A stretch of 53,777 nt of DNA from a bacterium (GTDB lineage: Bacteria > Patescibacteriota > Minisyncoccia > Minisyncoccales > UBA10102): positions 1 through 53,777 of the forward strand of contig JAQBTT010000001.1 of NCBI GenBank assembly GCA_027624865.1. The letters are read 5' to 3'. This document shows, piece after piece, positions 23,310-37,146 of the stretch. Position 1 is the stretch's first letter; the number at the start of each line of letters is the position of its first letter. The notes beneath the pieces are model-generated. The model did not search any database. It saw nothing but the letters and a program-made list of their open reading frames with translations, and was not told the origin of the DNA. Made by a program: the position numbers and the translations under genes.

Positions 23310-23383
23310 GCGCGTGTAGCTCAGCTGGTTAGAGCATTTCACTGATAATGAAAAGGCCGGAGGTTCGAGTCCTCCCACGCGCA
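23310..23383 (+). tRNA. tRNA-Ile (anticodon GAU)
   Basis: gcgcgtg/cacgcgc acceptor, anticodon loop ctGATaa, T arm ggagg-ttcgagt-cctcc. No CCA is encoded. Confidence 0.9.
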
Positions 23384-23519
23384 CAAGAAAACTAGACCGA
23401 GTCTAGTTTTTGAGAGATATGGTACCTGCTTTGAGAAAACGACTTGCCTTCAGCGGTTTTCTAAAGCAGGCCTGGGATTTGCATTATTCGTCCGCCAGGA
23501 GGCGGACGGCGCAAATCCC

Positions 23520-23616
23520 CCAAAAGACAAGCAGTTGTCTTTTGGGCCCGTGGCTCAGCTGGGTTAAAGACAACTGCTTGTCTTTAACGGGGTTTGAAAC
23601 AACTGCTTGTTTCAAA
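23520..23616 (+). repeat. Three tandem hairpins built on an aagacaa-NNNN-ttgtctt core, plus a 19-nt duplicate of the tRNA-Ala 5' end (23544-23562)
   Basis: ccaaaagacaagcagttgtcttttgg, gttaaagacaactgcttgtctttaac, gtttgaaacaactgcttgtttcaaac. gggcccgtggctcagctgg is identical to 23761-23779. Confidence 0.8.
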
Positions 23617-23720
23617 CGGACATTTTAGCGAACCCTCCGTGGTGAGCGTTAAAAAATGCCCAGGGTATAATGTAGTAAGCTCCTGCGAAGCCGTAAAAAA
23701 CTGCACCGGCTATAATATAG
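23605..23720 (+). repeat. Dispersed repeat family, copy A (core gaaccctccgtggtgagcg plus two tandem tataat-containing units)
   Basis: Near-identical to the reverse complement of 53665-53777. The core is shared with 30625-30699. Confidence 0.85.
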
Positions 23721-23760
23721 TAAGGTCTTTGAGAGTTGAAAATTGTTTGTAGAGTTTAAA

Positions 23761-23833
23761 GGGCCCGTGGCTCAGCTGGTAGAGCGCCTCATTTGCAATG
23801 AGGAGGTCAGCGGTTCGAACCCGCTCGGGTCCA
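23761..23833 (+). tRNA. tRNA-Ala (anticodon UGC)
   Basis: G3:U70 in the acceptor gggcccg/cgggtcc, anticodon loop ttTGCaa, T arm agcgg-ttcgaac-ccgct. Confidence 0.9.
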
Positions 23834-23845
23834 CAAATTCAGAAG

Positions 23846-23867
23846 ATCGCCAAGCAGGTGATTTTTT
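23846..23867 (+). terminator. Terminator after tRNA-Ala
   Basis: atcgcc-aagca-ggtgat followed by a T6 run. Confidence 0.55.
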
Positions 23868-23881
23868 GATAAAGTTAAGAC

Positions 23882-25165
23882 ATGCAAAAAGAAACACAAT
23901 GGGATGTTGTGGTTATTGGCGGTGGGGCATCTGGAATGATTGCTGCTGGTCGCGCTGGCGAGCGTGGCCGTAGTGTTTTACTGCTTGAGAAAAATCCTAC
24001 CTTAGGTAAAAAACTCCTTATCACGGGTGGCGGGAGATGTAACGTTACAAACAACAAGCCTGCAGTGCCAGTGATGCTCAAGGAATATAAGGGGAGTGAT
24101 AAGTTTCTCTTTTCTGCGTTTGTGCAATTTGGAGTAAAAGAAACACTGCAGTTTTTTAGCGATAGGGGAATGAAGATAAAGGAAGAGGCAGAGGGAAGAA
24201 TGTTTCCTGTATCAAATAAGGCAAAGTCAGTATGGGATGTGCTTATGCAATATGTGAAGAAAGGAGGGGTGAAGGTACAGACAAAGGCGCACGTTACAGG
24301 AATTACCTATGATACATCTTTACAGCAGTATGTTATAGCTCTTGCTGATGCAACTGAAGTGCATGCAAAAGCGTGCATTATTGCAACTGGCGGGATATCG
24401 CATCCTGAAACTGGTTCAACTGGTGAAGGGTTTTTGTGGCTTAAAAAATGTGGGCATGTGATAATTGAAAATGATTTAGCGCTTGTACCAATTGTACTAA
24501 GGGATGTATGGGCAAAGAAGCTAGCTGGGGTAACGCTCAATAATATTAAGCTCACTACATTTAAAAATGGAGTGAAGCAAAAGGCGTGCAAAGGGAAATT
24601 ACTTTTTACGCATGTTGGCATTAGTGGTCCTACGGTTTTAAATATGAGCAAAGAAATAGGAGAGCTTCTTTCGGAGAAAGAAGGGGCAGAATATATCAAA
24701 AAGGAAAAGATAAGTGAAGTTACAATTATGCTGGATTTATTCCCAACTCTTGATAGCGGTGTGCTTGGAAAGAAACTTCAGGCGCTTTTGACTGAAAGCA
24801 GTAACAAAAAGATAAAGAATGTGTTGTCTCCATTTATTTCTTCTACTCTTGTTGGTGTAGTGCTTATGCTCAGCAATGTGAATGGTGAAACACCAAGTCA
24901 TAGCGTACGCGCAGGAGAGCGAAAGGCGCTTACCTCTTTACTAAAAGCCATGCCCTTATCTGTTGCAGGGCTCCTTGGGAAGGATAAGGCAATAGTATCT
25001 TCAGGGGGCGTGATGCTTTCGCAAGTCAATTTCAAAACAATGCAGTCCCGCGTTCTGCCCCAACTCTACTTAATAGGTGACGTATTAAATATTGATCGCC
25101 CTTCTGGAGGATATAGTTTGCAATTATGCTGGACCACAGGCTATATTGCAGGGAGTAACTGCTAG
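23882..25165 (+). CDS. HI0933/BaiN-like FAD-dependent flavoprotein
   Basis: WDVVVIGGGASGMIAAGRA dinucleotide fold and LLITGGGRCNVTN, which is diagnostic of the HI0933 family. Confidence 0.8.
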   Translation: MQKETQWDVVVIGGGASGMIAAGRAGERGRSVLLLEKNPTLGKKLLITGGGRCNVTNNKPAVPVMLKEYKGSDKFLFSAFVQFGVKETLQFFSDRGMKIKEEAEGRMFPVSNKAKSVWDVLMQYVKKGGVKVQTKAHVTGITYDTSLQQYVIALADATEVHAKACIIATGGISHPETGSTGEGFLWLKKCGHVIIENDLALVPIVLRDVWAKKLAGVTLNNIKLTTFKNGVKQKACKGKLLFTHVGISGPTVLNMSKEIGELLSEKEGAEYIKKEKISEVTIMLDLFPTLDSGVLGKKLQALLTESSNKKIKNVLSPFISSTLVGVVLMLSNVNGETPSHSVRAGERKALTSLLKAMPLSVAGLLGKDKAIVSSGGVMLSQVNFKTMQSRVLPQLYLIGDVLNIDRPSGGYSLQLCWTTGYIAGSNC

Positions 25166-25209
25166 TATGGAGTGAGGGTGTATTATGAAAGATAAAAATA
25201 TTGTATAAT

Positions 25210-25989
25210 ATGAACATGCCAGAAAAGAAAAAAAGAATTCTTCTTATAGAAGATGAGAGGACCATTGCCAATCTTATTGAATTAAGACTCAAGCGCTCTG
25301 GATATGAGGTAGAAGTTATATACGATGGAATAAAGGGATTGAAGACCATTTTAGAGTCCCCCCCAGATCTTGTCCTTTTAGATATGTTGCTTTCTGGTTT
25401 GAGTGGTTTTGATATTTTAAAGACGTTAAAAGAGAAGAATCTTTTGCCCAACTTGCCTGTTATCATTATTTCAAACTCTGCCCAACCCGTGCAGTTAAAG
25501 CGTGCAGTAGATTTGGGGGCAAGGGGGTACTTAATAAAGGTAAACTTTAGTCCAGAGGAAGTGGTAGAAAAGGTAGAAGCGGTATTTAAAGAGGGCATAA
25601 AACAAGATTCTTTAAGTGAGAGCAATGTTCTTTTAGTGGAAGATGAGAAGTTTCTTGCCGATGCTATTGAAAGAACATTTACTCAAAAACAGTATAAAGT
25701 TTTGCAAGCTACAAATGCCAGAGAGGCAAGAAACATACTTGGTGAGGAAAAGGTCGATGTAATACTCCTGGATATTATTCTTCCTGATATTGACGGATTT
25801 CAGTTCTTGGAGGAATTGAAGAAAGACGACAAAGTTAAAGGTATCCCTGTGATTATTATCTCAAACCTTGGGCAAAAAGAAGAGATTGAGAAGGGGAAAA
25901 AGATGGGAGCGATTGATTACATTATAAAATCAGATACAATTCCAAGTGAAATTCTAGAAAAGGTTGAGAGTATACTTAAAAGTAATTAA
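25210..25989 (+). CDS. Response regulator with two receiver (REC) domains and no output domain
   Basis: Two REC units (LLIEDE..LLDMLL..YLIK and LLVEDE..LLDIILP..YIIK). The start is ATG 25210 or 25216, and TATAAT lies at 25204-25209. Confidence 0.8.
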   Translation: MNMPEKKKRILLIEDERTIANLIELRLKRSGYEVEVIYDGIKGLKTILESPPDLVLLDMLLSGLSGFDILKTLKEKNLLPNLPVIIISNSAQPVQLKRAVDLGARGYLIKVNFSPEEVVEKVEAVFKEGIKQDSLSESNVLLVEDEKFLADAIERTFTQKQYKVLQATNAREARNILGEEKVDVILLDIILPDIDGFQFLEELKKDDKVKGIPVIIISNLGQKEEIEKGKKMGAIDYIIKSDTIPSEILEKVESILKSN

Positions 25990-26004
25990 TATATATAAAA
26001 TACT

Positions 26005-27204
26005 ATGGCAATACAAGCTGGAGTTGGACAAGGTTCACAAAAGGATCCCTATGAGGCAGGATTTGAGGCGTGTCAAGCGGCACTTGATAAATTAGAAGGA
26101 GAGAAAGCAGACTTGGTTATTGTATTTTCCTCGGTTGCGCTTGACCAAAAAGAGGTTATTCGTGGTGTGCGCAATGTAAGTGGTGACGCTCTGCTTGTTG
26201 GGTGTAGTGATGCTGGGAGCATTACAAGTTCGGGCCCCGCTAAGAATGCAGTTGGGGTGATGGCAATTTCTTCAGATAAGCTGCACTTCTATACTGGCCT
26301 TGGCAAAGGAGTGAGCGATGGAGCACGGGAAGCTGGGCAAGCTCTTGCAAAAGAAATTCAAGAAAAAGCAAAAGAACCCTTGAAAACATTTTTAATGTTC
26401 CCAGATGTACTTACGGGAAATGGAGCAGATATTGTGCGAGGGGTATTAGATGTTTTGGGGGAGCATTTCCCATTGCTGGGAGGAGCTGCTGGTGACGATT
26501 TTCTTTTTAAAAAAACCTATCAGTACAAAGATGGCGAGGTTGCATCAGGCGCTGTTGCTGGGGTTGGTATCTCTGGAGATTTTGTAATGGGAGCTGGAGT
26601 ACGTCATGGATGGATGCCCATTGGTAGCTCAATGACTGTAACAAAGTCAAAAGGTTCTGTGGTGTATGAGCTGGACGGGAAACCTGCTGCTAGAATCTAT
26701 GAAGACTATTTTGGAGAACGAGCAGAAGATTTAAAAAGTGAACCTTTAGCGCGCTTGGCAATAACATATCCTTTAGGGATTAAGGTGAGTGATCTTGATG
26801 AATATTTAATTCGAGACCCTATCACGGTGGACGAAAATGGGGCTATCACGTGTGCAGCTGAGATCCCAGAAGGGTCAGAGATTAGGCTGATGATTGGGAG
26901 TAAGGATAAGGCGATAGAGGCCGCTCAAGATGCAGCAGAAAAGCTCATGCGAGATTTTAAAGAGAAGAATGCAACACCAAAATTTGTTTTGATGTTTAAC
27001 TGTATTGCACGAGAAAAATTGTTTGCACAAAAGGCAAATGATGAGATTCAAGCGATAATGAACATTATTGGCAAAGACGTTCCATTATTGGGATTCTACA
27101 CGTACGGGGAAATAGCCCCCATAAAAGGAGAGGTGCACGACATGGAGAAGGTTGTTTCAAAATTTTACAATGAAACCGTTGTGATGCTTGCGATAGGAGA
27201 ATGA
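26005..27204 (+). CDS. FIST-domain (FIST_N + FIST_C) sensory protein
   Basis: 399 aa, cytoplasmic. The layout (DLVIVFSS..GCSDAG..GDF.. and the C-terminal LGFYTYGEIAP) is typical of FIST proteins. Confidence 0.7.
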   Translation: MAIQAGVGQGSQKDPYEAGFEACQAALDKLEGEKADLVIVFSSVALDQKEVIRGVRNVSGDALLVGCSDAGSITSSGPAKNAVGVMAISSDKLHFYTGLGKGVSDGAREAGQALAKEIQEKAKEPLKTFLMFPDVLTGNGADIVRGVLDVLGEHFPLLGGAAGDDFLFKKTYQYKDGEVASGAVAGVGISGDFVMGAGVRHGWMPIGSSMTVTKSKGSVVYELDGKPAARIYEDYFGERAEDLKSEPLARLAITYPLGIKVSDLDEYLIRDPITVDENGAITCAAEIPEGSEIRLMIGSKDKAIEAAQDAAEKLMRDFKEKNATPKFVLMFNCIAREKLFAQKANDEIQAIMNIIGKDVPLLGFYTYGEIAPIKGEVHDMEKVVSKFYNETVVMLAIGE

Positions 27205-28163
27205 ATTCTTTCGTTATTCTTGGAACTATTGCGCTTGCTGGTATTGTTTTTGCTTTTATCTTTACGCAGGGCGCGAGAAAGCAACTTCTAAACTTGCAAA
27301 AAAAGAACGTACGTTTTGAAAAACTCCTTTTGCAAAAGGAGCGTGAGCTTGCTCAAGCCAATGGAATACTGAAGGAACGTAGCAAAGAGTCCAATGAAGT
27401 AGCAAGGGTACTTGTAAGAAGAGATTTGGAGTTAACAGAGACAAACGAGCGTTTACGTGAGCTTGATTCAGTGAAATCAGAATTTGTGTCTGTTGCAGCT
27501 CACCAGCTAAGAACTCCCTTAACAGGTATTAAGTGGACCCTCAATGCTCTGCTTACTGGTGAGGTTGGTACGCTGGATAAGGACCAAAAAAAACTTGTTA
27601 CAGATGGTCTTGCTGCAACGTATAGATTAATAGAACTTATCAATGACTTATTGGATACTGCGCGTATTGAGGAAGGGAGATTTGGGTTTAACTTTAAGAT
27701 GCTTTCCTTAGCTCCAATACTTAAGCAGTCGATTGTGAACTATGCAGTGATTGCAAAGAAGAAAGGCATACAGCTTATACTCAAGTTGCCAGAAGCAAAG
27801 CTCCCTTTGCTAAAACTTGACGCAGAAAAGATTGGAATTGTACTAGATAACCTTATTGATAACGCTATAAAGTATACAATTCCTGGGGGCAAGATAACAG
27901 TGCGAGCTACACTTCAAAAAGAGCATGTTGTGCTAGAGGTGGAAGATACAGGAATTGGGGTTCCAAAAGAGCAAGTGCATCGCGTCTTTACTAAATTTTT
28001 TAGGGCAGTAAATGCTCAGCTTGCAGAGACCTCAGGAACCGGACTTGGACTATACGTATCCCATAACATTGTAGAGCACCACAGAGGAACTCTTTCTTTT
28101 ACAAGTAGTGAGGGGAAAGGGAGTACATTTGTTGTTTCTCTTCCTTTAGTTAATCAAAGATAA
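27201..28163 (+). CDS. Sensor histidine kinase (TM, coiled coil, HisKA, HATPase_c)
   Basis: H-box SEFVSVAAHQLRTPLT, N-box DNLIDNAIKYT and G-box GTGLGL. The start overlaps the FIST stop (ATGA). Confidence 0.85.
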   Translation: MNSFVILGTIALAGIVFAFIFTQGARKQLLNLQKKNVRFEKLLLQKERELAQANGILKERSKESNEVARVLVRRDLELTETNERLRELDSVKSEFVSVAAHQLRTPLTGIKWTLNALLTGEVGTLDKDQKKLVTDGLAATYRLIELINDLLDTARIEEGRFGFNFKMLSLAPILKQSIVNYAVIAKKKGIQLILKLPEAKLPLLKLDAEKIGIVLDNLIDNAIKYTIPGGKITVRATLQKEHVVLEVEDTGIGVPKEQVHRVFTKFFRAVNAQLAETSGTGLGLYVSHNIVEHHRGTLSFTSSEGKGSTFVVSLPLVNQR

Positions 28164-28181
28164 TACATTTACATAGTAGTT

Positions 28182-28448
28182 ATGCTAAAAACACTTACCT
28201 TCCATCCATCTCGCATCGGGTGCCCATCAATTCCTGGCACCATGAAAGGGATTGTAATTTCAATTCCCGGAGTAAAAGACGTAGAAGTAAGGTATGAAGA
28301 ACGTTCAATAGATGTTACTTTTGACGAAACGAAAACATCACCTGAGGAAATCACAAAGAAGATAGGAGAAGAGATGGGCTTGGCAATGGAAGTTACTAAG
28401 CATGGCTCAAAAAAAGAAGGGAACGTAGCACATACCTGTCCTATGTAA
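28182..28448 (+). CDS. Small HMA-like (ferredoxin-fold) protein with a degenerate metal site
   Basis: IPGVKDVEVRYEERSIDVTFD...EEITKKIGEEMG matches the HMA fold pattern, but the usual CxxC is replaced by GCPSIPGT. The C-terminus is HTCPM. Confidence 0.4.
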   Translation: MLKTLTFHPSRIGCPSIPGTMKGIVISIPGVKDVEVRYEERSIDVTFDETKTSPEEITKKIGEEMGLAMEVTKHGSKKEGNVAHTCPM

Positions 28449-28557
28449 TAGGGAGGGTACTTTTCCACAGGCGCTCTATTGCTCTGATTCTATCTTTGGT
28501 ATAATAATTGAACGCACAAAAGGTCGTTTTTAGCATAGTAAAGGTAAATATATTACA

Positions 28558-28764
28558 ATGATGCAAAGAAGCACAATAGGTTTGGTAGTCGGTATTCTTT
28601 TAGTTGTTGGTGGTCTAAACTGGGGATTGGTTGGACTCTTCAACATGGATGTTGTCGCTACCGTTTTTGGAGGAACTGCAGCCTTGGGTTCCAAGGTCGT
28701 ATATGTTCTTGTAGGGATTGCAGCCATATACAAGCTCGCCAAGATGGTGGGGATAATGAAGTAA
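28558..28764 (+). CDS. DUF378-family small membrane protein
   Basis: 68 aa with GGLNWGLVGLF and two TM helices. Confidence 0.75.
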   Translation: MMQRSTIGLVVGILLVVGGLNWGLVGLFNMDVVATVFGGTAALGSKVVYVLVGIAAIYKLAKMVGIMK

Positions 28765-28828
28765 TTGATACTTCTTTCTGCCCAGCCCTCTTTAAAGAGG
28801 GCTGGGTCAAAGAGATATTTATTCTATA

Positions 28829-29251
28829 ATGCATTCATTCTTTAATTTTTTAAATCGTATTTTCCCAGCACAAGTTGTATTTGCGCACTGCGATATTCCT
28901 TGTGGTATTTATACTCCAGAGCCAGCACAAACTGCAGCTTTGACTGTAATTCGCATGATAGAGAAGCTTCAGGAAGCAGAGGCAGGGGATGCTCACAACA
29001 TAGCAAGGTTCACTCAAGCAAAAGAAGAGCATGCACAAAAATGCAAACAAGAACTCCTTATTCTTTGGACTGATTACTTTAAAGAAGAGCATCTTTTGGT
29101 GTTCCCAAATCTCCACGATATTTTTTGGAAAGCAACAAAGCTGTGTTCCAAGAATAAGCAGGAAGTAAGTATGGAGGCTGCTCAGGCCTTGAAGCAGGCA
29201 GTAGCTGAGATAGCAGAGATGTTCCACAAAGTAGAGGCAGCAAAGAAATGA
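28829..29251 (+). CDS. sodN: Nickel superoxide dismutase precursor
   Basis: A leader peptide followed by HCDIPCGIY (the Ni-hook His-Cys-x-x-Pro-Cys-Gly-x-Tyr) and LWTDYFK. Confidence 0.85.
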   Translation: MHSFFNFLNRIFPAQVVFAHCDIPCGIYTPEPAQTAALTVIRMIEKLQEAEAGDAHNIARFTQAKEEHAQKCKQELLILWTDYFKEEHLLVFPNLHDIFWKATKLCSKNKQEVSMEAAQALKQAVAEIAEMFHKVEAAKK

Positions 29252-29309
29252 TGAGACTGCTTGAGTTGCTTGAAACCGGGTTTCAAGCAGTCAGAGGCAG
29301 CGTTATACT

Positions 29310-29627
29310 ATGATTTCCTATTTTAAAGTGAAGGGCCAGAGCATGGAGCCCTGGGTAAAAGAAGGGGACTTTGTTTTGGTAGATAGGTTGTCCTATCTAT
29401 TTTTAAGACCAAAGGTAGGACATGTAGCATTAATAAGGCATCCAGAGAAGCCAAACTTGCTAATTATAAAGCGCATTGCGCGAAAAGAGGATAATAGGTA
29501 TTGGGTAGAGGGGGACTCTTCTTTTAATAGTACAGATAGTCGGCATTTTGGGTGGCTCAAAAGAGAGCTTTTAGTGGGAAAAGTTATCCACAGGACAGGC
29601 TCCTTTGCTCTTGGTATACTATCGTAA
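29310..29627 (+). CDS. sodX: S26-family peptidase, NiSOD maturation protease
   Basis: VKGQSMEP (Ser nucleophile), IIKRIA (Lys) and GDSSFNSTDSRHFG, located directly downstream of sodN. Confidence 0.75.
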   Translation: MISYFKVKGQSMEPWVKEGDFVLVDRLSYLFLRPKVGHVALIRHPEKPNLLIIKRIARKEDNRYWVEGDSSFNSTDSRHFGWLKRELLVGKVIHRTGSFALGILS

Positions 29628-29683
29628 TATAAGAAAAGGTCGGAAAAGGTAGTTTCCATAATTAAAGAATACACAAAAAATAT

Positions 29684-30361
29684 ATGGTTCTCGATTTATA
29701 CGTGGTTACCATTCAAGCTCTGCAAGGTCTTTGGGAAGGGTTCATTGGATTTTTGCCAGAATTGATTGGAGCGCTCATCATCTTTGTTATTGGATGGTTT
29801 ATCTCTGTTGGAGTAGGCCGTTTGGTAGCTGACATTTTAAAGAGAATTAAATTCAATCAAGTTTTTGAGCGAGGAAACTGGAAGAGTGCCCTAGAAAAAG
29901 CGGACATTAAGATGGATCCTTCAGGATTCATAGGCGCTATCTTCAAATGGGTGTTTGTTATCGTGTTCCTTAGAGTGACCGTGGAGGTGCTGGGCTTAAC
30001 TCAGCTTACTACGTTCATTGAGAGTATTCTCGCATATTTGCCTAATGTACTGGTTGCCTCGTTAATTTTCGTAGTAGCTGTGATTGTTGCAGATATCGTA
30101 GAGAAAGTTTTGAGAGCTGCAGTGGAGTCTGCTCAGGTAGGGCAGGCACACATGGTTGGTGTAATTGTCAGGTGGTCCATTTGGATCTTTGCTGCAATTG
30201 CAATCTTAACTCAGCTTGGCGTTACCCCAATTCTTTGGCAGACTTTGTTTACCGGTTTGGTAGCATTGATTGTTGTGGCTGGTGGTTTGGCATTTGGCTT
30301 GGGAGGAAAGGAAGTAGCAGGCCAATGGCTACAAGACATGAGTAGGAAACTAAAAGGATAG
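29684..30361 (+). CDS. Integral membrane protein with conserved-TM-helix repeats (MscS-N-terminal-like)
   Basis: 225 aa with 4-5 TM helices and a repeated G.LP.L.GAL.I...GW motif. Confidence 0.5.
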   Translation: MVLDLYVVTIQALQGLWEGFIGFLPELIGALIIFVIGWFISVGVGRLVADILKRIKFNQVFERGNWKSALEKADIKMDPSGFIGAIFKWVFVIVFLRVTVEVLGLTQLTTFIESILAYLPNVLVASLIFVVAVIVADIVEKVLRAAVESAQVGQAHMVGVIVRWSIWIFAAIAILTQLGVTPILWQTLFTGLVALIVVAGGLAFGLGGKEVAGQWLQDMSRKLKG

Positions 30362-30381
30362 TTTTTCTACTTTCTCTTCTG

Positions 30382-30412
30382 AAACTACCCCGCTTTTGCG
30401 GGGTAGTTTTTT
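30382..30412 (+). terminator. Strong rho-independent terminator
   Basis: aaactaccccgc-tttt-gcggggtagttt followed by ttt. Confidence 0.85.
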
Positions 30413-30476
30413 ACTCCTTAAAATAAGGTGGAAAACCTCTTGTTTTGAGAGGAATATATGGGATTTTTTGGATGAG

Positions 30477-30505
30477 TTGACATTGATTGAGCCATAGCGT
30501 ATACT
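30477..30505 (+). promoter_or_regulatory. Promoter of the 23S-5S transcription unit
   Basis: TTGACA (30477-30482), 17-nt spacer, TATACT (30500-30505). Confidence 0.65.
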
Positions 30506-30624
30506 TAAAATACGACATGAGAAATAGCCAAAAACTTTTGCAATCACAAAGCGGCTGATAAAACCTGATGGTTTAATGTGTCAGTAGGATGCCGCCACGT
30601 AAGCGGTTTTTTGTTCCTCATGTT

Positions 30625-30699
30625 GGGTCCAAGACAACTACTTGTCTTGGATGGGTGATTTAGTGAACCCTCCGTGGTGAGCGTAAAAAATCACCCAGG
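30625..30699 (+). repeat. Dispersed repeat family, copy B (aagacaa hairpin plus the gaaccctccgtggtgagcg core)
   Basis: ccaagacaactacttgtcttgg followed by tgatttagtgaaccctccgtggtgagcgtaaaaaatcaccc. This is the same architecture as 23591-23660. Confidence 0.8.
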
Positions 30700-30712
30700 T
30701 TCTTTGTCAATT

Positions 30713-30738
30713 TAATAATGGGTATAATCTGCTAGCAA
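30713..30738 (+). promoter_or_regulatory. 5' strand of the 23S processing stem
   Basis: The reverse complement of taataatgggtataatctgctagcaa matches 35620-35644 at 25/26 positions. Confidence 0.8.
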
Positions 30739-30971
30739 CAGGAATCAATTGTAATTATAGGCAGGTAGTGGATGCCTTGGGATGTAAAGGCGATGAAGGA
30801 CGTAGCTTAGCTGCGATAAGCCTCGGGGAGCAGTGTAGCATGCTTTGATCCGGGGATTTCCGAATGGGGAAACCTGGTTTATGGAAACATAGATCGTCTG
30901 TCAGCAATGACAGAAGCGAACCCGCTGAAGTGAAACATCTCAGTAAGCGGAGGAAAAGAGAACGTAAGTAT

Positions 30972-31156
30972 CCTTGTGCTTCGCACAAGGAATTCCTAAT
31001 TAACCTAATTCCTAATTAACCTAATCAATAACCAATGTCTTAATACTAATGACCAAAAACTTATAGAGTACTATATTGGTTTTTAGAAATTAGGATCTGG
31101 GATTTCTTTAGAAATTAGAAATTAGATATTAGAAATTTCTCGTGCGAAGCACGAGG
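30972..31156 (+). repeat. 185-nt AT-rich insertion in 23S domain I bounded by inverted GC hairpins (IVS- or MITE-like)
   Basis: ccttgtgcttcgcacaagg (30972-30990) against the reverse complement of ctcgtgcgaagcacgagg (31139-31156) gives 17/19. TAT flanks both ends. The interior is made of stuttered words (aattcctaattaacc x2, ttagaaatta x3). Confidence 0.75.
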
Positions 31157-31200
31157 TATATTCCCTTAGTAGCGGCGAGCGAAATGGGAGGAGCCTAAAC

Positions 31201-31321
31201 TGTCAGTGCTTTGCATTGACCGCAGAAGGACGCGGACTTGACGCGGAACTGCGCGGAAATATTTTCTGCGTGATTCTGCGTTTGGTCTGCGTAGTTCCGC
31301 GGCCAATGCGGAGCATTGGCA
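31201..31321 (+). repeat. 121-nt hairpin-cluster insertion module, copy 2, in 23S domain I
   Basis: Homologous to 20296-20418 in the 16S: tgtcagtg...cattgaccgcag...ttctgcgtgattctgcgtttg.tctgcgtagttccgcggccaatgcg.agcattggca. Confidence 0.85.
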
Positions 31322-33072
31322 GGGTTGTAAGACTATAGCGTCGGGAGTTGTTTTGAAACGTTGCGCGATTTTGGAGATCTCAATAGTGGGGTCCCCGAAA
31401 TTGCGAAGCGATTTTGAAGGAATTTCTGAGGGAGAATATTTAGATAAAGTGGTTAGAAAAACGCCTCTGGAACGGGCGGCCAAAGAGGGTAATAGCCCCG
31501 TATTCGAAAACTGCCTTTATGCTCCTTGCTATTTTTCTTGAGTACCTCGGGACACGAATATCCCGTGGGAAACATCCGGGACTATCCGGAAAGGCTAAAT
31601 ACTTTACATCACCGATAGTGAACGAGTACCGTGAGGGAAAGGTGAAAAGCAGCCCGGTGAGGGCGATGAAATAGAACCTGAAACTATCTTGCCTACAACG
31701 AATCGGAGGGGAGTTTACTCCCTGACGGTGTGCTTTTTGCAGAACGAGCCAACGAGTGTTCCTAACAGCTTTGTCTAAGCGCCTTTGGCGTGCAGGCACA
31801 GCGAAAGCGAGTGTGAATAGCGCGTTTGGCGTCCGCAAGGACGCTATGAGTTGTTGGGAACGACCCGAAGCCAAGCGAGCTTGCCATGAGCAGGGTGAAG
31901 GATGACGAAAGTCGTCTGGAGGCCCGAACCCGTAGATCGTTCAACGTCTTGGGATGACTTGTGGTAAGAAGTGAAAAGCTAATCGAGCTTGGTAATAGCT
32001 GGTTCTCTCCGAAATAGCTTTAGGGCTAGCGTCGCAAAGCAAGTCTTGGAGGTAGAGCTCTGAAAAGAGCGCTCTTGGAGCAATCCAGGCGCTTTTATCA
32101 AACTTCGAATGCCAAGACTCTAGATGCGGCAGTCAGAACGTGGGGGCTAAGCTCCGCGCTCAAAAGGGAAACAGCCCAGATCTTCATCTAAGGTCCCTAA
32201 ATCAAGCTAAGTGCAAAATAAGGAAGTGAGGCTCCAAAGATAGCTAGGAGGTTCGCTTAGAAGCAGCTATCCTTTAAAAATAGCGTAATAGCTTACTAGC
32301 TAAGGAGTTTTGCGCCGCAAATTTATCGGGGCTAAGCTTGGTACCGAAGATAAGGCCCAGCTCTCTTTCAAGAGGGCTGGGGGTAGGAGAGCGTCCTCTT
32401 TGCAATGAAGGTGAATCGTGAGGTTTGCTGGAGCGGAGAGGAGTGAGAATGTTGGCATGAGTAACCACAATGCAAGTGAAATCCTTGCACACCGAAAACC
32501 TAAGGTTTCCTTGGCAATGACAATCACCCAAGGGTTAGGCGGCCCTAAGTGGTGCACCAAATGGTGTATTGCGATGGACAGAAGGTTAATATTCCTTCCC
32601 CTTGTCATATGCTTTTTCAGATGACGGAGTGTAGTAACTCTTGTGAATTATTGGATTTTTGTCCTTGGCGTGAGGGGTAACCCAAGCGCAGAGGCGACTC
32701 GCTGTTATGGCGGGGAGAAGAGTGAGCACGCTTCCCGGAAAAGTTCTGAAAGTTTGAGTATGATGAGTCCGTACCGTAAACCGACACAGGTGGGTTGGTA
32801 TCAATGTACTAAGGTGAACGGGTGAAAGCTCCTGAAGGAACTCGGCAAATTAGTGGTCGTAACTTCGGGATAAGACCTCCCTGTAGCAATACAGGGCGCA
32901 GCAAACGTATTCCTGGCGACTGTTTACCAAAAACACAGGTCCCTGCATAACTCGAAAGAGGAAGTATAGGGGCTGACGCCTGACCAGTGCTGGAGTGTTA
33001 AGCCTGCAGGTGGCTTTGAGCAATCAAAGCTGCTTAGTGGGTGAAGCCCCAGTGAACGTCCGCGGTAACTAT

Positions 33073-33810
33073 AAACTCACGGGTTGTAGTTATAAAATCT
33101 GGCCATATGCGGGAACATCTCGACAAAAATCTTAGACGTACTCGTAAGGAATTCGTCTCCTTGCAGTAACAATCGATCTAAGAGAGAAAATCCGCAGGAA
33201 AGACCATTTGTGAGTCACAAAAAAACATGAGAAGTCAATCATGGGAAAAGCAAATCCCCAGCCACATTGGGTGGTATCTTGCAGGATTTGCAGATGGTGA
33301 AGGAAGCTTCAACATCTCCCTTAAGAGAGATATAGAGTATCGACTCGGTTGGCATATTGAACCAAGTTTCAATGTATCCCAACGAGAAAGAACAATTCTT
33401 GCTTTGTTCAAACAACATCTTGGAGTAGGAACACTTCGTCAACGAAAAGATGGAGTAGTATACTACGAAGTGCGCAATTATCGTGCACTGCAAGATAAAG
33501 TTATTCCTTTCTTTGAGAAATTTACTTTTCTTTCTTCAACAAAAAAGAGAAATTTCTCGCTCTTCCGTAAAATTATTGTTCTTATGAATGAAGGGCAACA
33601 TACAAATGCGGAAGGTTTGAAGAAAATCCTTTTGATTAGAGAACAAATTAATAAAGGTCATGGAAGAACAAGGAAGTATTCATTAGACGATTATTTAGAC
33701 TCACAAGCGGAATCCTCAGAGACTATACGCCAGACCCTGAGAGAGCCGAAAGGCGAATCGAAGGGATGATATAGTCCGATCTCATAGGTGACTATGAGCT
33801 AACATGTATG
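33073..33810 (+). mobile_element. Group I intron at the site equivalent to E. coli 23S U1917 (helix 69 loop), carrying a LAGLIDADG ORF
   Basis: The 5' exon ends in U (gtaactat) and the intron ends in G. The internal guide GUAGUU pairs with exon AACUAU with a U.G at the splice site. The core elements aatctggccatatgcggg and gatatagtcc are present. Joining the exons restores GUAACUAU|AACCGUG, so helix 69 (cgcgg/ccgtg) can form. Confidence 0.75.
33227..33769 (+). CDS. LAGLIDADG homing endonuclease (single-motif)
   Basis: 180 aa with WYLAGFADGEGSF. The ORF 3' end runs into the intron core (its stop overlaps gatatagtcc). Confidence 0.85.
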   Translation: MRSQSWEKQIPSHIGWYLAGFADGEGSFNISLKRDIEYRLGWHIEPSFNVSQRERTILALFKQHLGVGTLRQRKDGVVYYEVRNYRALQDKVIPFFEKFTFLSSTKKRNFSLFRKIIVLMNEGQHTNAEGLKKILLIREQINKGHGRTRKYSLDDYLDSQAESSETIRQTLREPKGESKG

Positions 33811-33824
33811 AACCGTGTTAAAGT

Positions 33825-34097
33825 AGGAAATCTGCTTTAGTAAAATCTGGCTATATGCTGGAAAATCTGAGTATCCGACACTACTTGAAAGAGTGAAAAT
33901 GTGTTCGGTGCAGACAATCAGCAGGAAACCAAAATCATAAAGTGTGATGAGTAGGATCCTCAGAGACTATACGCCAGACCCCGACATTACGTCGGGGAAG
34001 ATATAGTCCGAACTTCATGGCGACATGAAGAGTGAAGTAGAAATACTTCACCGCCATGCCTCTTTTTATGAGGCTTGGTCTGAAAGTAACATGATTG
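33825..34097 (+). mobile_element. ORF-less group I intron at the site equivalent to E. coli 23S U1931
   Basis: The 5' exon ends in U (ttaaagt) and the intron ends in G (atgattg). The guide GCUUUA pairs with exon UAAAGU with a U.G wobble. The core aatctggctatatgctgg, cagacaatcagcagg and gatatagtcc is homologous to the neighbouring intron. Joining the exons gives AAAGU|AGCGUAAUCCCUUG. Confidence 0.7.
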
Positions 34098-34420
34098 AGC
34101 GTAATCCCTTGCCTGGTAAGTTCAGGCCTGCATGAAAGGCGTAACGACTGGGAAACTGTCTCCAGGAGCTGCCCGGTGAAAATGCAATACCGGTAAAGAT
34201 GCCGGTTACCTGCGGCTAGACGGAAAGACCCCGGGAGCTTTACTATAGCTTCTTATTGTCTTGTCATTTTGCCTGCGTAGAATAGCAGGGAGGCTTTGAT
34301 GCCCGTTTTTCGGAATGGGTGGAGCCAACAGTGAAATACCTGTCTGGTAGGAAGATAAGACTAATTCCGCGTATGCGGATGACAGTGGGAGGTGGGTAGT
34401 TTTAGTGGGGCGCTAGCCTT

Positions 34421-34729
34421 AACACAATGGGGCCATCTAAGAGTAATTTTAGATGCCAAACTCGACTAATATGCTGGAATATCTGGAGTACTTAAGGAGT
34501 AATCCAACAAGTGTGGCCGTAAGATACGGCTACCAGACAATCAGCAGGGAAGGTATAATAGAGGTACCACCCTCAACGACTACACGTCGAGCCCGAACTA
34601 TTGAAAGAATGAATGTTCGGTGGTGATATAGTCTGAACTCTATGGCGACATAGAGACTCGGTAATGTTCACACATTGCGCCAGTGAAACAATCCGAGACT
34701 TAAGTGCTTACTTAAGGTTAACAGAATTG
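34421..34729 (+). mobile_element. ORF-less group I intron just 3' of the P-loop (about E. coli 2257-2263). Boundaries are uncertain by up to ~8 nt.
   Basis: It interrupts ggggcg..|..cctaaagagtagcggagg. It shares the core ctcgactaatatgctgg, cagacaatcagcaggg and gatatagtct with the other introns. An alternative boundary pair is 34415/34724. Confidence 0.6.
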
Positions 34730-35060
34730 CCTAAAGAGTAGCGGAGGCGTTTAAAGGTCAGCTAAGTCCGGATGGAAATCGGACCGGTCGTGTAAAGGCG
34801 CAAGCTGGCTTTACTGCGAGACGGATATGTCGAGCAGTTGCGAAAGCAGAACTTAGTGAACCGATACGCCGTAATAGAAGGCGTAAAGATCATCAACCAA
34901 AAGTTACCCCGGGGATAACAGGCTGGTAGTGCCCACGAGTCCATATCTACGGCACTGTTCGGCACCTCGATGTCGGCTCACCTTATCCTGGGGGTGGAGA
35001 AGCTCCCAAGGGTTTGGCTGTTCGCCAATTAAAAAGGTACGCGAGCTGGGTTCAGACCGT

Positions 35061-35328
35061 CAATAATGAACCATGACATTGAGTAACACACGGCGGCTTT
35101 CATAAGTAATTATGATCGCAAACCGACTCATATCGGTGGATTCCTATAAACTTTTTCGCAACCTGGAAGAGTAGGAGAATACCGAGGCAACCTGTATGTA
35201 TATTATATATGGGAGCTGTAGAGACTTGATCTATGATCAGACGGGAGAGAATATTTTTCCGTAACACGTCGGCATCCTTAGTAAAGGATGGTGGTATAGT
35301 CCAAACATTTGGTAACAAGTGAGTATTG
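35061..35328 (+). mobile_element. ORF-less group I intron at the site equivalent to E. coli 23S U2593 (peptidyl-transferase centre)
   Basis: Exon gggttcagaccgt | 268 nt ending in G | cgtgagacaggt restores GAACGU|CGUGAGACAG. The core aaaccgactcatatcggtgg and ggtatagtcc is present. Confidence 0.7.
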
Positions 35329-35619
35329 CGTGAGACAGGTTGGTCCCTATCTACCGCAGGCGTCAAGTCTTGAGGAGATTCGTCTCTAGTACGAGAGGAC
35401 CGAGATGAACTAACCTCTGGTGTACCAGTTGTCCTGCCAAGGGCATCGCTGGGTAGCTATGTTGGGAAGGGATAAGCGCTGAAAGCATATAAGCGCGAAG
35501 CCTACTCCAAGATGAGGACTTTAAGATCCCTCGAAGATCACGAGGTTGATAGGCTCTAGGTGAAAGCCCGGTGACGGGTTCAGCCGAGGAGTACTAATGA
35601 TCTACATACGATTATTTCT

Positions 35620-35644
35620 TTGCTAGCAGATTATACCCATTATT
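35620..35644 (+). promoter_or_regulatory. 3' strand of the 23S processing stem
   Basis: ttgctagcagattatacccattatt is complementary to 30713-30738. Confidence 0.8.
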
Positions 35645-35691
35645 TTAACCGAAGATTACCACTTGGTTCTTTTTGATTTGCAATTAATGAT

Positions 35692-36162
35692 TGGGGCTTA
35701 TACTGGAGTTGTCCCACCTCAGTCCAGGGCGATTTTTCACGGCTTCACAGGAGTTCCGCCTAAATCGCCCGTGCGAGTAAAGCAGTTTACTCGCGCCCCA
35801 TTCCGAACTCCGTACCAGAACAAAGTTCGGTACGGGGCGCAGCACAGAAGCATGCCCCGCACTAAATTTGAGAATATAATCGAGGTTTTTGTAAGGCGAC
35901 TATACTGGAGGTGCTCCACCCGATCCCATTCCGAACTCGGAAGTGAAATTCTCCAAGGCCGATGATAGTGCTTTGCGCGAAAGTAGGTAGTCGCCTTACA
36001 AAGATTTTGATCTCAAGTTTTAGTGCGGGATGAAATACCGCAAGGCCCCCGCCTACGCTATAAGCTTCGGCGGGCAGGGATGATAGTTAAATTCTCGGGC
36101 GAAAGCATGCCCCGTACCATCCGAACGATAGTGAGGATTGGTAGCGGGGTAGGTAGTCCCCA
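35692..36162 (+). other. Split 5S-like sequence (5' half and 3' half) enclosing the canonical 5S gene
   Basis: 35697-35725 and 35797-35810 resemble the 5' half of 5S (about 22/27, plus cccattccgaactc). 36119-36162 resembles the 3' half (ccgaacgatagtg...gtaggtagtcccc). The two ends are complementary (tggggctta / tagtcccca). Confidence 0.55.
35891..35999 (+). rRNA. rrf: 5S rRNA
   Basis: 12-bp helix I gtaaggcgacta/tagtcgccttac, cccattccgaactcggaagtgaaa, and the loop E region ccgatgatagtg...gaaagtagg. Confidence 0.9.
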
Positions 36163-36288
36163 CTTTTGTACTTCTCAATAGTGCTTAGTTTCCGGTGTAG
36201 TTTCTCAACTCACGGTTTGTTGCTACAAACATCGCTTGTAGAGAAACTGCCCGCCAAAGGCAAAGCAGTTTGCCTTTGGCCCACCTGA

Positions 36289-36344
36289 CCTGCCCGCAAT
36301 GCTTCGCTATGCTTGCATAGCGTTGCAGGCGGGGCGTTTTTTTT
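36289..36344 (+). terminator. Terminator of the 23S-5S unit
   Basis: A long imperfect hairpin (inner stem cgctatg-cttg-catagcg) followed by a T8 run. Confidence 0.7.
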
Positions 36345-36375
36345 GTTGCTATTTTTTGCTATAGTAATACAACCT

Positions 36376-37146
36376 ATGCACACATTCTTTATAAAATATA
36401 AGCTCATAGTGCTTCTTTTTTTCGTGAGCGCTGTTTTGATTTTAAGTGTAAGTTCAGGGAGCGTGAGAGGAACTTTCACGTCATTGTTTTCTCCGATGCA
36501 GTCTCTTATCTGGAAATCAGGTACGACTATAACAGATAGTTTTTCTGAAGTTTCACGTGAGCGTGTACAGGAACTTGTGGAGGAAAACTTTGCTTTGCGC
36601 GGTAAGCTTCTTTCGTTTGAAGAAATGGCAAAAGAGAATGAGCGACTGCGAGAAGCGCTTGGTGCACTTCCCAAAAAAGAGTTTGATTTACTCTTTAGTG
36701 AAATTATTGGAAAGGAAGTTGAGCGAGATGTGTTGATGCTAAATAAAGGAGCAAAGGAAGGGGTGAGACAAGGAATGCCAGTTATAACACAAGGGAGAGT
36801 TGCAGTAGGAACTATTGGAGAAGTGTTTTTACACACCGCAAAGTTACACCTTCTTTCTTTAAAGGGCGGGGCATCTGACGTAAAGGTACAAGGAAGAGAA
36901 GTAGTAGGAGTCCTTCGAGGGATAGGGAGGTATCGCGCGCTTTTGGACCTTATTCCTCAAGAGGAGGAGTTGAAAGAAGGGGACGTTATCGTAACATCAT
37001 CTTTGGGCGGGTTACTCCCAGATGATTTGTTGATTGGAGAAGTTACGAGCATTGAAAAGAGTGATCTTACCGCATTTCAGGGAGGAAATGTTGAACTATT
37101 TTTTCAGGTAAAAAAAGAAAATTCTTTATTTATTCTTCGGAACTAA
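36376..37146 (+). CDS. mreC: Rod-shape protein MreC
   Basis: N-terminal TM helix, a coiled coil (ENFALRGKLLSFEEMAKENERLREALG), and the beta domains GMPVIT..GTIGEV and GDVIVTSSLGG.LP..LLIGEV. The start was trimmed to ATG 36376 because the upstream part of the ORF overlaps the terminator. Confidence 0.8.
   Translation: MHTFFIKYKLIVLLFFVSAVLILSVSSGSVRGTFTSLFSPMQSLIWKSGTTITDSFSEVSRERVQELVEENFALRGKLLSFEEMAKENERLREALGALPKKEFDLLFSEIIGKEVERDVLMLNKGAKEGVRQGMPVITQGRVAVGTIGEVFLHTAKLHLLSLKGGASDVKVQGREVVGVLRGIGRYRALLDLIPQEEELKEGDVIVTSSLGGLLPDDLLIGEVTSIEKSDLTAFQGGNVELFFQVKKENSLFILRN

Follow-up and report, generated by a model that had tools for sequence, protein, structure and literature searches.

A 5S rRNA gene nested within a second, split 5S rRNA gene in a member of the Patescibacteriota

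5S rRNA is treated as among the most static genes in biology and, to our knowledge, 5S genes are not known to move. The rRNA operon described here raises the question of how one 5S gene could come to lie inside another. The operon is found on 53,777 nucleotides of contig JAQBTT010000001.1 (the window), which belongs to a member of the Patescibacteriota. An earlier note, made from the letters of this DNA, had described a canonical 5S gene nested inside a second, split 5S-like sequence. It offered three explanations (disruption of a 5S gene by a 5S-carrying element, a nested duplication, or a large precursor scaffold) and proposed an Rfam scan and a comparison with the 5S loci of relatives. The features of the locus as we now see them are given in Table 1; loci used for comparison carry L numbers.

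Table 1. Features of the nested 5S locus, in positions of the window
Feature	Positions	Strand	Remarks
23S processing stem, 3' strand	35620..35644	+	perfect 25-nt complement of 30714-30738; marks end of 23S unit
Spacer before outer 5S	35645..35691	+	homologous to spacer before the intact T2-type 5S of L078
Outer 5S (T2) piece 1: 5' strands of helices I, II and III, loop A	35692..35725	+	HMM, spliced alignment
Insert 1: inverted ~72-nt two-hairpin module	35726..35796	+	hairpin B 35727-35770; hairpin A 35773-35794, GCAG loop
Outer piece 2: loop C (CCCATTCCGAACT)	35797..35809	+	HMM, spliced alignment
Site-1 mini hairpin and CGCAG linker	35810..35842	+	CTCCGTACCaGAACaaaGTTCGGTACGGGG, -18 kcal/mol; stem begins 2 nt upstream, in piece 2
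Outer piece 3: helix III 3' strand (CACAGAAG)	35843..35850	+	spliced alignment
Cassette stalk, 5' arm	35851..35891	+	CATG + CCCCGCACTAAATTTGAG...TCGAGGTTTTTG
Inner 5S rRNA gene, T3 type	35892..35999	+	RF00001 79.5 bits; 32/32 pairs; taken as functional gene
Cassette stalk, 3' arm (AAAGATTTTGATCTCAAGTTTTAGTGCGGGA)	36000..36030	+	
Outer piece 4: loop B, helix II 3' strand (TGAAATACCGCAAGGCC)	36031..36047	+	identical to outer 5S of L074
Insert 4: hairpin CCCGCC...GGCGGG	36048..36078	+	helix V / loop E boundary
Outer piece 5: both loop E strands, helix IV (GATGATAGT..GGGCGAAAG)	36079..36105	+	HMM E 0.0018, spliced alignment
Insert 6: site-3 mini hairpin (CATGCCCCGTACC...GGTAGCGGGG)	36106..36149	+	at GAAAG^TAGGTAG
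Outer piece 6: 3' strands of helices V and I (TAGGTAGTCCCCA)	36150..36162	+	pairs with 35692-35700
Window-specific structured tail and operon terminator	36163..36345	+	GCAG-loop hairpin 36253-36280; GC-rich stem then T-run 36289-36345

The inner and outer 5S genes

The inner gene matched the Rfam 5S model RF00001 over model positions 1-120, far above the gathering score of 38. All of its consensus pairs are kept, all helices of the 5S rRNA of this clade can form, and no other copy folds completely. On the basis of this score and the intact pairs it is taken to be the working 5S gene of the organism. ORFs overlapping the RNA of the 5S locus were spurious only, and the inserted unit that carries the inner gene (the cassette, see below) holds none. 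No terminator-like site was seen upstream of the inner gene, and the strong one at about 36289-36345 follows the whole nest.

When the interval 35600-36400 was scanned with RF00001 at E<=10, the inner gene was the sole match and the outer copy went unmatched; intron covariance models at the same threshold added no other Rfam match in this interval. This silence on the outer copy is not a refutation, because inserts of 30-180 nt are too long for a covariance model to span. The Rfam scan was thus uninformative for the split gene, so a profile HMM and spliced alignment were used. The HMM (nhmmer), built from the 5S genes of relatives, gave three colinear partial matches in addition to the inner gene: 35692-35726 (model positions 3-37, E 5e-7), 35797-35812 (34-49, E 0.017) and 36079-36108 (70-95, E 0.0018). 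Spliced alignment allowing long inserts traced a second full-length 5S around the inner gene, from 35692 to 36162, in 6-7 colinear pieces. Its scores were 109-121 as against 65 +/- 5.6 (maximum 89) for shuffles (300 per query, inner gene masked; z = 8-10).

The nesting claimed by the earlier note is borne out by these results. The complementary arms that it placed beside the inner gene were recovered in repeat and folding analyses, the two perfect hairpins that it saw in the outer 5' half are those of insert 1, and the outer ends, read directly from the sequence, do pair as helix I at 8/9 positions. Its inventory of outer pieces was incomplete and needed revision. The piece at 36031-36047 had been overlooked. 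What had been called a third, weaker 3'-half-like piece (36080-36113) is in fact the genuine helix IV/V portion of the outer gene. The stretch taken for the 3' half (36119-36162) consists mostly of a 44-nt hairpin insert, and only 36150-36162 is the true 3' end. The ccgtacc repeat is real as part of a repeated hairpin-arm motif, CCCCGTAC; it is not a target-site duplication. The same motif was considered as an operon-wide processing signal and ruled out, the flanks of the 16S, 23S and tRNA genes being free of it.

With its inserts removed the outer copy retains 24/32 consensus pairs, two being broken in helix II and three in helix III. For comparison, a decayed tandem copy in L065 retains 25/32 and functional relatives 31-32/32. 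There is no longer a match between the 5' and 3' halves, the helix IV loop has 4-5 extra nucleotides, and five hairpin inserts besides the cassette interrupt the shell. Judged from its sequence, the outer gene of the window appears as a dead, decaying shell.

The outer 5S starts 75 nt past the end of the 23S gene, and in relatives with the identical order 23S-5S-mreC-mreD-PBP2 the 5S gene lies 42-70 nt past it. In L078 a homologous spacer is followed by an intact T2-type 5S; the spacer is also homologous to the decayed 3' end and spacer of the first tandem 5S of L065. L074 holds an intact counterpart of the outer 3' half, downstream flank included. From its position and from the counterparts in L078 and L074, the outer copy can be identified as the resident 5S gene of the lineage. 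The inner gene is of another type, as is seen in helix I (inner TAAGGCGAC, outer GGGGCU) and helix II (inner GGAGG, outer GGAGU), and together with its proximal flanks it resembles distant lineages such as L006.

The cassette and the smaller inserts

A stalk of about 39 bp carries the inner 5S at its tip, and the 180-nt hairpin thus formed (35851-36030), the cassette, interrupts the outer 5S at G54^U55 (E. coli numbering; GAAG^UGAAAU). According to the alignments the insert sites in the 5S core are C47^N48, G54^U55, C71^G72 and G102^U103 (E. coli numbering). The inserts keep out of the Watson-Crick helices I, II and IV, a pattern to be expected had the outer fold been important at the time of their insertion. 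Every one of them folds on itself as a hairpin; the short inserts reach -15 to -34 kcal/mol, the cassette -78.7 kcal/mol.

Other sites of outer genes hold shorter hairpins with cassette-like ends, CATGCCCCGTA...CGGGG. Conserved inverted-repeat ends of the form (CATG)CCCCGYA...CGGGG are found on three hairpins in the window, and the end motif has four matches each in L067, L073 and L076 and eight in L075. Within the 53.8 kb of the window 3/4 matches to CCCCGYAS fall into one 290-nt stretch, the 5S locus, and AAGCATGCCCCGTA is confined to nested loci among the 76 loci compared. A target-site duplication was looked for at the GAAG^CATG...CGGGR^TGAAAT junctions of six loci, and no duplicated bases were seen. 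The cassette pattern was unmatched in the viral contigs of IMG/VR, where a phage vector was sought.

Across the six loci the stalk has 39 pairs, 97% of cells being paired, and two compensatory pairs. This covariation is not significant (at least two such pairs occurred in 56/500 shuffles), the stalk being too conserved for strong statistics. The identity of stalk arms between loci is 0.77-0.97, and L067 and L074 reach 0.97 despite MreC proteins that are 41% identical; the 45-nt spacers after the 23S gene show an identity of merely 0.53-0.82. Function instead of recent transfer could be the cause of the conservation of the stalk, which is probably a processing stem.

A blastn-short search with the region as query and the whole window as target returned mostly noise, the useful results being the 23S stem and one 21-nt match. 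The latter, to the spacer between the tRNA-Ile and tRNA-Ala genes, led to the recognition of the 72-nt module of insert 1, of which further copies lie at 23592-23665 and 30625-30697. A nested tRNA-Ala gene analogous to the nested 5S was considered and rejected: only a 19-nt 5' fragment is duplicated, and a downstream 3' fragment is absent.

Nested, plain and tandem loci in other genomes

Five further metagenome contigs of uncultured Patescibacteria, from different samples, have this stalk at the identical junction, GAAG^TGAAAT. L067 was obtained through MreC homologs, and L073-L076 through a scan that required only the stalk base and the T3 5' end. The nested loci thus number six in all, and as four came from a pattern that demands the cassette they are no measure of its frequency or host range. 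In all four of the latter contigs the flanking 5S halves are broken at model position 52, and L075, the locus Ga0066650_10048328, shows three levels of nesting.

While the cassette is constant, the outer gene differs in type by host, being T2 in the window and in L074 but T1 in L067 and L073; that of L076 is of a TAAGGGAGC type. The outer copies also differ in their state. In L067 the 5' half is deleted, and L073 has other sequence in place of helix III and loop C (25/32 pairs). After in silico removal of inserts the outer copy of L076 retains 30/32 pairs and level 2 of L075 32/32, with 23/24 assessable pairs at level 1. Copies with 30-32/32 pairs fit a recent invasion, and equally copies that are still in use. 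The smaller inserts recur as well: the site-1 mini hairpin is the same insert in the same place in L067, L075 and L076, and L075 has a hairpin with matching ends at the site of insert 6.

The comparison proposed by the earlier note thus yielded intact outer counterparts, five nested contigs and plain sisters. A single plain 5S is present in L057, L003, L064, L068, L072, L077 and L079. MreC identity is 76% between the window and L057 and 78% between L064 and L067, and in these pairs only the window and L067 carry the cassette. L065 possesses a tandem pair composed of a decayed T1 copy and a T2 copy; 5S genes therefore turn over in this clade. A T3-type 5S occurs alone in L006 and L008, and L006 keeps the proximal part of the cassette stalk. 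Hairpins like the inserts of the nested loci were seen in none of the sole-copy 5S genes among the loci examined.

Origin of the nest and its relation to known elements

The 5S genes of these bacteria seem to replace one another by invasion, because a hairpin-plus-5S cassette recurs at the same spot elsewhere. We consider it probable that the cassette was inserted into the resident 5S gene and is a horizontally spreading replacement, after whose arrival the host copy decays. This corresponds to the disruption by a 5S-carrying element suggested in the earlier note, and is favoured by the recurrence of the unit in five contigs and by the plain 5S of sister genomes. The cassette would enter the resident gene and take over its function. 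Entry might involve DNA uptake followed by recombination through the flanking 5S homology, or else a site-specific mechanism directed at AAG^U. The 5S that is now innermost would again be a clean, uninterrupted target, which would explain recursive nesting. The whole nest would be transcribed with the rRNA operon, and the inner 5S may be set free when an RNase III-like, double-strand-specific activity cuts the stalk.

A bolder form of this idea, which we put forward tentatively, is that the 180-nt unit is a selfish element, a stalked 5S that homes into AAG^U of the resident gene and replaces its function, the short CATGCCCCGTA...CGGGG hairpins being cargo-less relatives or footprints of it. 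Repeat invasion and Russian-doll loci would follow because the unit brings its own fresh, uninterrupted target. The sequences even leave room for a stronger version, in which the hairpin bases are splice or excision signals and every nested 5S is expressed.

The latter leads to the precursor scaffold of the earlier note, which may be put as follows: the locus would be a composite functional precursor in which all nested 5S copies are used and the CCCCG...CGGGG hairpins act as excision signals, in the manner of intervening sequences or 'hairpin introns'. A cut at the stalk base would free the inner pre-5S, the outer halves would stay paired through helices I and II or be ligated, and one transcript would give two or three 5S molecules. 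The nearly complete pairing of the insert-free copies of L076 and L075 speaks for it, as do lineage-specific compensatory differences in helix II and the freedom of helices I, II and IV from inserts. Each insert is a hairpin complete in itself, its base conserved and its top covarying, small hairpin inserts also occur in the 16S and 23S genes of this genome, which are functional and present as single copies, and other bacteria tolerate 5S expansion segments near these sites (PMC7812874). Nevertheless we regard it as rather unlikely. Outer helices II and III of the window no longer pair properly and the halves are mismatched, the outer 5' half is missing from L067, and L073 has lost its original helix III and loop C by replacement. 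Inserts lie within the functionally critical loop E (36048-36078 and 36106-36149 in the window; also L073 and L075), no sole-copy 5S examined bears such hairpins, and a second copy is redundant because one ribosome needs one 5S. What survives of the scaffold is the inner stalk, conserved and probably a processing stem; the outer shell, with helices II and III lost, argues against it.

If, on the other hand, the nested locus were ancestral and inherited vertically, the plain loci would reflect repeated loss of the cassette or the shell. Cassette hosts are as distant as 32-41% MreC identity, and the T3-only loci L006 and L008, the former with its proximal stalk, could be the end state after erasure of the shell. 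This history is decidedly unlikely, since the intact GGAAGTGAAAT core in the seven plain loci would need many precise excisions of a 180-nt insert without flanking repeats, the outer types vary by host around an unchanged cassette, and the stalks are more alike (identity up to 0.97) than are the 23S 3' ends (0.80-0.85) of hosts at comparable distance. Nested duplication of the resident 5S in situ, for example by template switching and subsequent divergence, might be suspected from the inverted and direct repeats of 5S fragments in the region and from the tandem duplication in L065. It went unsupported, and we find it very improbable: the inner and outer genes are of different types, L006 matches the inner gene and its proximal flanks, and the identical cassette lies within unrelated outer genes elsewhere. 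rRNA loci are hard to assemble from metagenomes, and reads belonging to several 5S genes might have been joined into a chimera. The chance of such an artefact is almost negligible, as another record from this sample, whose contig differs in length (L001, presumably an independent assembly), has exactly this sequence in the region, the same grammar is seen in five contigs from other samples and assemblers, and the junctions are base-exact across loci.

In the replacement that we favour, a complete 5S gene behaves as an insertion cassette aimed at other 5S genes, and displaced copies are visible at several stages of decay. If confirmed, it would provide a way for rRNA genes to be replaced and horizontally transferred in the Candidate Phyla Radiation (CPR), the first reported insertions in CPR 5S genes, and a natural demonstration that the loop B / helix III region of 5S is able to bear very large RNA cargo. 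Many ribosome biogenesis factors are missing in these organisms, and 5S maturation from a 39-bp stalk would become testable in them.

The literature searched agrees with the earlier note that there is no described bacterial precedent for the nest, though hairpin expansion segments in 5S are known (PMC7812874). The cassette is best read as related to these segments and to the intervening sequences of rRNA. Expansion segments are 13-109 nt long, carry no gene, and occur in Clostridia, Pseudoalteromonas and Halobacteria, not in the CPR; two of the known inserts are retained in mature 5S rRNA (Stepanov & Fox 2021, PMC7812874). Remnants of 5S genes with the same insert have been reported, and horizontal transfer and recombination were proposed for their spread (PMC7812874). 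Like the cassette, expansion segments are self-folding helical inserts at a loop, bulge or junction of an otherwise complete 5S core, and are patchy among close relatives. The Thermoanaerobacter-type insert is rooted at A52/A53 (PMC7812874), 2 nt from the cassette site. Unlike them, the cassette brings along an entire further 5S on a stalk of its own and nests recursively. The host core is broken in the window and similarly damaged in L073 and L067, whereas in L076 and at level 2 of L075 it can still fold.

The intervening sequences of bacterial 23S and 16S rRNA, for example in Coxiella, are excised by RNase III without religation and are regarded as selfish or horizontally moved. We know of none described for 5S and of none that carries an rRNA gene. 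The cassette shares with them a long, nearly perfect stem-loop at an exposed position and a sporadic occurrence among relatives (present in the window and L067, absent from the seven plain loci), and double-strand-specific cleavage is plausible for it by analogy. Integrative elements that target tRNA or tmRNA genes bring an integrase and a partial copy of the target gene and leave att repeats. In both cases the insertion destroys the resident copy while the incoming DNA supplies a working replacement, but the cassette has 180 nt, no protein gene and no repeats, and carries a full gene copy. With MITE-like elements it has in common several copies with conserved inverted-repeat ends, although a target-site duplication was found at none of the six loci. 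Twintrons and nested transposons are elements inserted recursively into copies of themselves; such recursive self-insertion is seen here too, except that the nested unit is a housekeeping rRNA gene.

In 2015 Brown is said to have described insertion sequences in the rRNA genes of the CPR. Later surveys of CPR rRNA found inserts of at least 100 bp in 0/645 5S genes, using covariance-model matches (Tsurumaki 2022, 2024; PMC9297842, PMC11270868). Nested 5S genes are missed in this way because such models see only the innermost copy. The cassette occurs in the same organisms and the same operon as CPR rRNA introns, but differs from these in having neither an intron signature nor an endonuclease ORF. 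The 16S and 23S genes of the window are themselves rich in inserts, two group I introns and a LAGLIDADG ORF among them.

Structure of the nested 5S locus

The window belongs to an uncultured patescibacterium (CPR; source sample SAMN03444961) and carries one rRNA operon, whose features are collected in the table. Its 5S gene (inner 5S) does lie inside a second, split 5S-like sequence (outer 5S, or shell), as the earlier note had claimed, and occupies the tip of a 180-nt hairpin, the cassette. A scan with the Rfam 5S model (RF00001), proposed in that note, returned the inner 5S only, even at E<=10, which is expected because long inserts interrupt the outer gene. A profile HMM derived from relatives' 5S genes gave three further partial matches, colinear in model and sequence. 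In a spliced alignment with long inserts permitted and the inner gene masked, the whole outer 5S was recovered in order, with scores of 109-121 against 65 ± 5.6 (maximum 89) in shuffles (300 per query). The list of pieces in the earlier note was borne out but omitted the one directly 3' of the cassette; its "weak third piece" proved to be a genuine helix IV/V segment of the outer gene, and its "3' half" is mostly a 44-nt hairpin insert. All interruptions of the outer 5S fold as hairpins, and the stretch 35685-36170 (486 nt) is far more structured than shuffles (z = -7.7). A strong terminator-like site lies 3' of the nest; none was found before the inner 5S.

Features of the rRNA operon and the nested 5S locus in the window
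Feature	Position	Remarks
16S	20228-21961	
tRNA-Ile, tRNA-Ala		3' of 16S; tRNA-Ala at 23761-23834
16S-23S interval	21962-30744	about 8.8 kb; tRNA-Ile, tRNA-Ala, several protein genes
Duplicate of tRNA-Ala 5' end	23546-23564	within region 23519-23617
Protein genes	23882-30361 (ORFs)	about 7 kb, between tRNA genes and 23S
23S	30745-35617	two group I introns, LAGLIDADG ORF
23S region with inserts	33073-34729	738, 273, 310 nt
LAGLIDADG ORF	33227-33769	
Group I introns	33799-34030, 34410-34655	
95-nt insert	20325-20417, 31225-31320	in 16S and 23S
Two-hairpin module	23592-23665 (+), 30625-30697 (+), 35726-35796 (-)	possibly also 36199-36280 (-)
Outer 5S, HMM match	35692-35726	model positions 3-37; E 5e-7
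Outer 5S, HMM match	35797-35812	model positions 34-49; E 0.017
Outer 5S, HMM match	36079-36108	model positions 70-95; E 0.0018
Outer 5S, spliced alignment	35692-35725, 35797-35809, 35843-35850, 36031-36047, 36079-36105, 36150-36162	36079-36105 counted as two pieces
Cassette	35851-36030	
Inner 5S (Rfam)	35892-35999	79.5 bits
Terminator-like site	about 36289-36345	
mreC, mreD, PBP2, greA		3' of 5S

Pair counts refer to a consensus structure for functional 5S genes of the clade. The inner 5S forms 32/32 pairs and functional relatives form 31-32/32; the window's outer 5S, with inserts removed, forms 24/32. Two pairs are broken in helix II and three in helix III, and loop E holds two of the outer copy's inserts. 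The outer gene in the window is a pseudogene. Its shell is also a mosaic, since the 5' strand of helix II (CUGGAG) is not matched by the 3' strand (ACCGCAAG), although the same 3' strand is carried by the metagenome locus L074.

Related loci and distribution of the cassette

In relatives gathered via PBP2 and MreC the gene order 23S-5S-mreC-mreD-PBP2 is kept, and their loci (L-numbers) hold three 5S types: T1 (GGTGGCGG...CCGCCACC), T2 (GGGGCU...(A)GYCCCC) and T3 (UAAGGCGAC...GUCGCCYUAC). One plain T1 gene lies 42-45 nt 3' of the 23S in L003, L057, L064, L068, L072, L077 and L079. In L078 the spacer that precedes the window's outer copy is followed by an intact T2 gene, and L074 carries an uninterrupted form of the outer 3' half and of the flank beyond it; the outer copy is therefore the resident T2 gene at its native position. 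The inner copy belongs to type T3 and matches the only 5S of a distant Candidatus Wildermuthbacteria MAG (L006), a match that extends ~13 bp into the flanks. The 5S of L008 is T3-like with different flanks.

L065 (922-1172; also L066) has two tandem 5S genes 36 nt apart, a decayed T1 copy without helix I (51 bits, 25/32 pairs) and an intact T2 copy, which is independent evidence of 5S turnover at this locus. The 5S-mreC linkage is not universal in the clade, because in one related lineage (L058-L063; 71% MreC identity, 671-kb contig GCA_022563395.1) mreC adjoins sigma-70, dnaG and HIT genes and not the rRNA operon.

L067, from a different sample and with 68% MreC identity to the window, has this 180-nt hairpin and its T3 5S at the same junction (...CACGGAAG / CATGCCCCGTACT...AGTACGGGG / TGAAAT...). 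The right junction there runs into the intact 3' half of a T1 host gene whose 5' 37 nt are deleted; the left is an illegitimate deletion. The pair of junctions would fit recombination with a homology anchor on one side only. A scan of JGI metagenomes, with a pattern demanding only the stalk base and the T3 5' end, gave four contigs (L073-L076). Each of these cassettes is lodged in another 5S, the 3' half of which begins at model position 52. The outer gene of L076 is complete and still folds (30/32), and that of L073 has had helix III and loop C replaced (25/32). L075 contains three 5S levels (1440-2197, - strand): the second (32/32 pairs) lies within the first at the GAAG^UGAAAU site, the third lies within the second, in a hairpin after CCGAAC, and Rfam matches the innermost alone. 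Further inserts interrupt the outermost copy in the 5' strand, following CCAAGG, and at GAAAG^TAGG; the contig ends within this copy, short of its 5' end. Only six nested loci are known. All come from metagenomes, and four were picked by a pattern that includes the cassette.

Probable spread, proposed working and alternatives

MreC identity places the window beside L057 (76%) and L067 beside L064 (78%); of these four, only the window and L067 have the cassette. The MreC proteins of the L074 and L075 hosts are 32-41% identical to those of the window and L067 and to each other, whereas the stalk arms of the four nests are 0.89-0.97 identical. Over the final 230 nt of the 23S the window is 0.80-0.85 identical to L073 or L076. 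The 45-nt spacers 3' of the 23S are 0.53-0.82 identical. The cassette is constantly T3 while the outer genes differ in type. This patchy presence, the stalk identity set against host divergence and the varied outer types make horizontal spread a better fit than ancient inheritance followed by numerous precise losses. It is distribution and sequence conservation that suggest a mobile cassette.

The stalk has 39 pairs, with 97% of cells paired and two compensatory pairs. The nest would be co-transcribed with the operon, a double-strand-specific nuclease would cut the stalk and free the inner 5S, and the outer fragments would be discarded. Redundant after such a takeover, the resident gene would decay, through stages perhaps represented by L076 (nearly intact), the window (mutated and further invaded) and L067 (half deleted); in L006 it may be wholly erased. 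The innermost gene, always uninterrupted, would be the next target, which would account for the three levels of L075. Insertion might be driven by DNA uptake and recombination through the 5S arms of about 50 nt, or by an enzyme aimed at AAG^U. No target duplication was found at the cassette junctions, and the repeat ccgtacc is not one either but part of a repeated hairpin arm. The cassette contains no ORF, and a search of viral contigs gave no match to it.

The main alternative is that the outer genes are still in use and the hairpins are excised intervening sequences or tolerated expansion segments. The outer cores of L076 and L075 are indeed intact, and the inserts spare helices I, II and IV; the 16S and 23S of this genome, which as single copies must be functional, also contain small inserts. 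However, the shells of the window, L067 and L073 are broken or truncated, inserts lie within loop E, and such hairpins are missing from every examined 5S that is the sole copy at its locus. Duplication of the 5S in situ is unlikely, inner and outer copies being of types T3 and T2. An assembly artefact is also unlikely; the nest region is identical in a second record of the same sample whose contig has another length.

Helical expansion segments of 13-109 nt are known at 17 sites in 5S genes of Clostridia, Pseudoalteromonas and Halobacteria (Stepanov and Fox, PMC7812874), with a patchy distribution, accompanying 5S remnants and proposed horizontal spread; one of the sites, A52/A53, lies two nucleotides away from that of the cassette. 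Surveys of rRNA genes from CPR bacteria reported abundant inserts in 16S and 23S but none of at least 100 bp in 645 5S genes (PMC11270868; PMC9297842). These rest on covariance-model hits, which detect the innermost copy alone, so that nested shells escape them. No account of a nested, split or fragmented 5S gene turned up in literature text searches, in agreement with the earlier note, which knew of no bacterial precedent. Among 5S insertion and expansion elements, a complete 5S gene as cargo and the recursive arrangement are without precedent.

Insertion sites and other small inserts

Inserts recur at four sites. After CCGAAC there is a hairpin CCCCG...CGGGG followed by CGCAG; at GAAG^UGAAAU, CAUG with CCCCGUAC...GUACGGGG; at GAAAG^UAGGUAG (window and L075), CAUG with CCCCGUA...CGGGG; the fourth lies around GGCC^GAUGAUAG. 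At their bases the hairpins are conserved; the tops vary yet still pair. AAGCATGCCCCGTA is confined to nested loci (76 loci compared), and the hairpin-arm motif is clustered in the nest and was not found in the 16S and 23S flanks.

A two-hairpin module of roughly 72 nt is repeated in the spacers of the operon, and one inverted copy interrupts the outer 5S. Hairpin A has a conserved CTGC/CTAC loop on stems that pair but differ completely among copies; hairpin B is GGGYGATTT-26 nt-AAATCRCCC. L057 and L003 lack the module copy of the 23S leader. The last protein genes 5' of the window's 23S are also upstream of the 23S in L057. About 195 nt before the genuine tRNA-Ala gene lies a second copy of its initial 19 nt (GGGCCCGTGGCTCAGCTGG), enclosed by two inverted copies of the hairpin AAAGACAA-GCAG/CTGC-TTGTCTTT; downstream there is no 3' fragment to match it.

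The functional rRNA genes of this genome seem to be undergoing colonisation by small inserts. The same structured insert of roughly 95 nt (…GACTTGACGCGGAA…TTCTGCGTGATTCTGCGTTTG.TCTGCGTAGTTCCGCGGCCAATGCG.AGCATTGGC) occurs in the 16S and the 23S, the 23S copy being absent from L057 and L003; the three longer 23S inserts, among whose contents are the two group I introns and the LAGLIDADG ORF, are likewise specific to the window in comparison with these two relatives.
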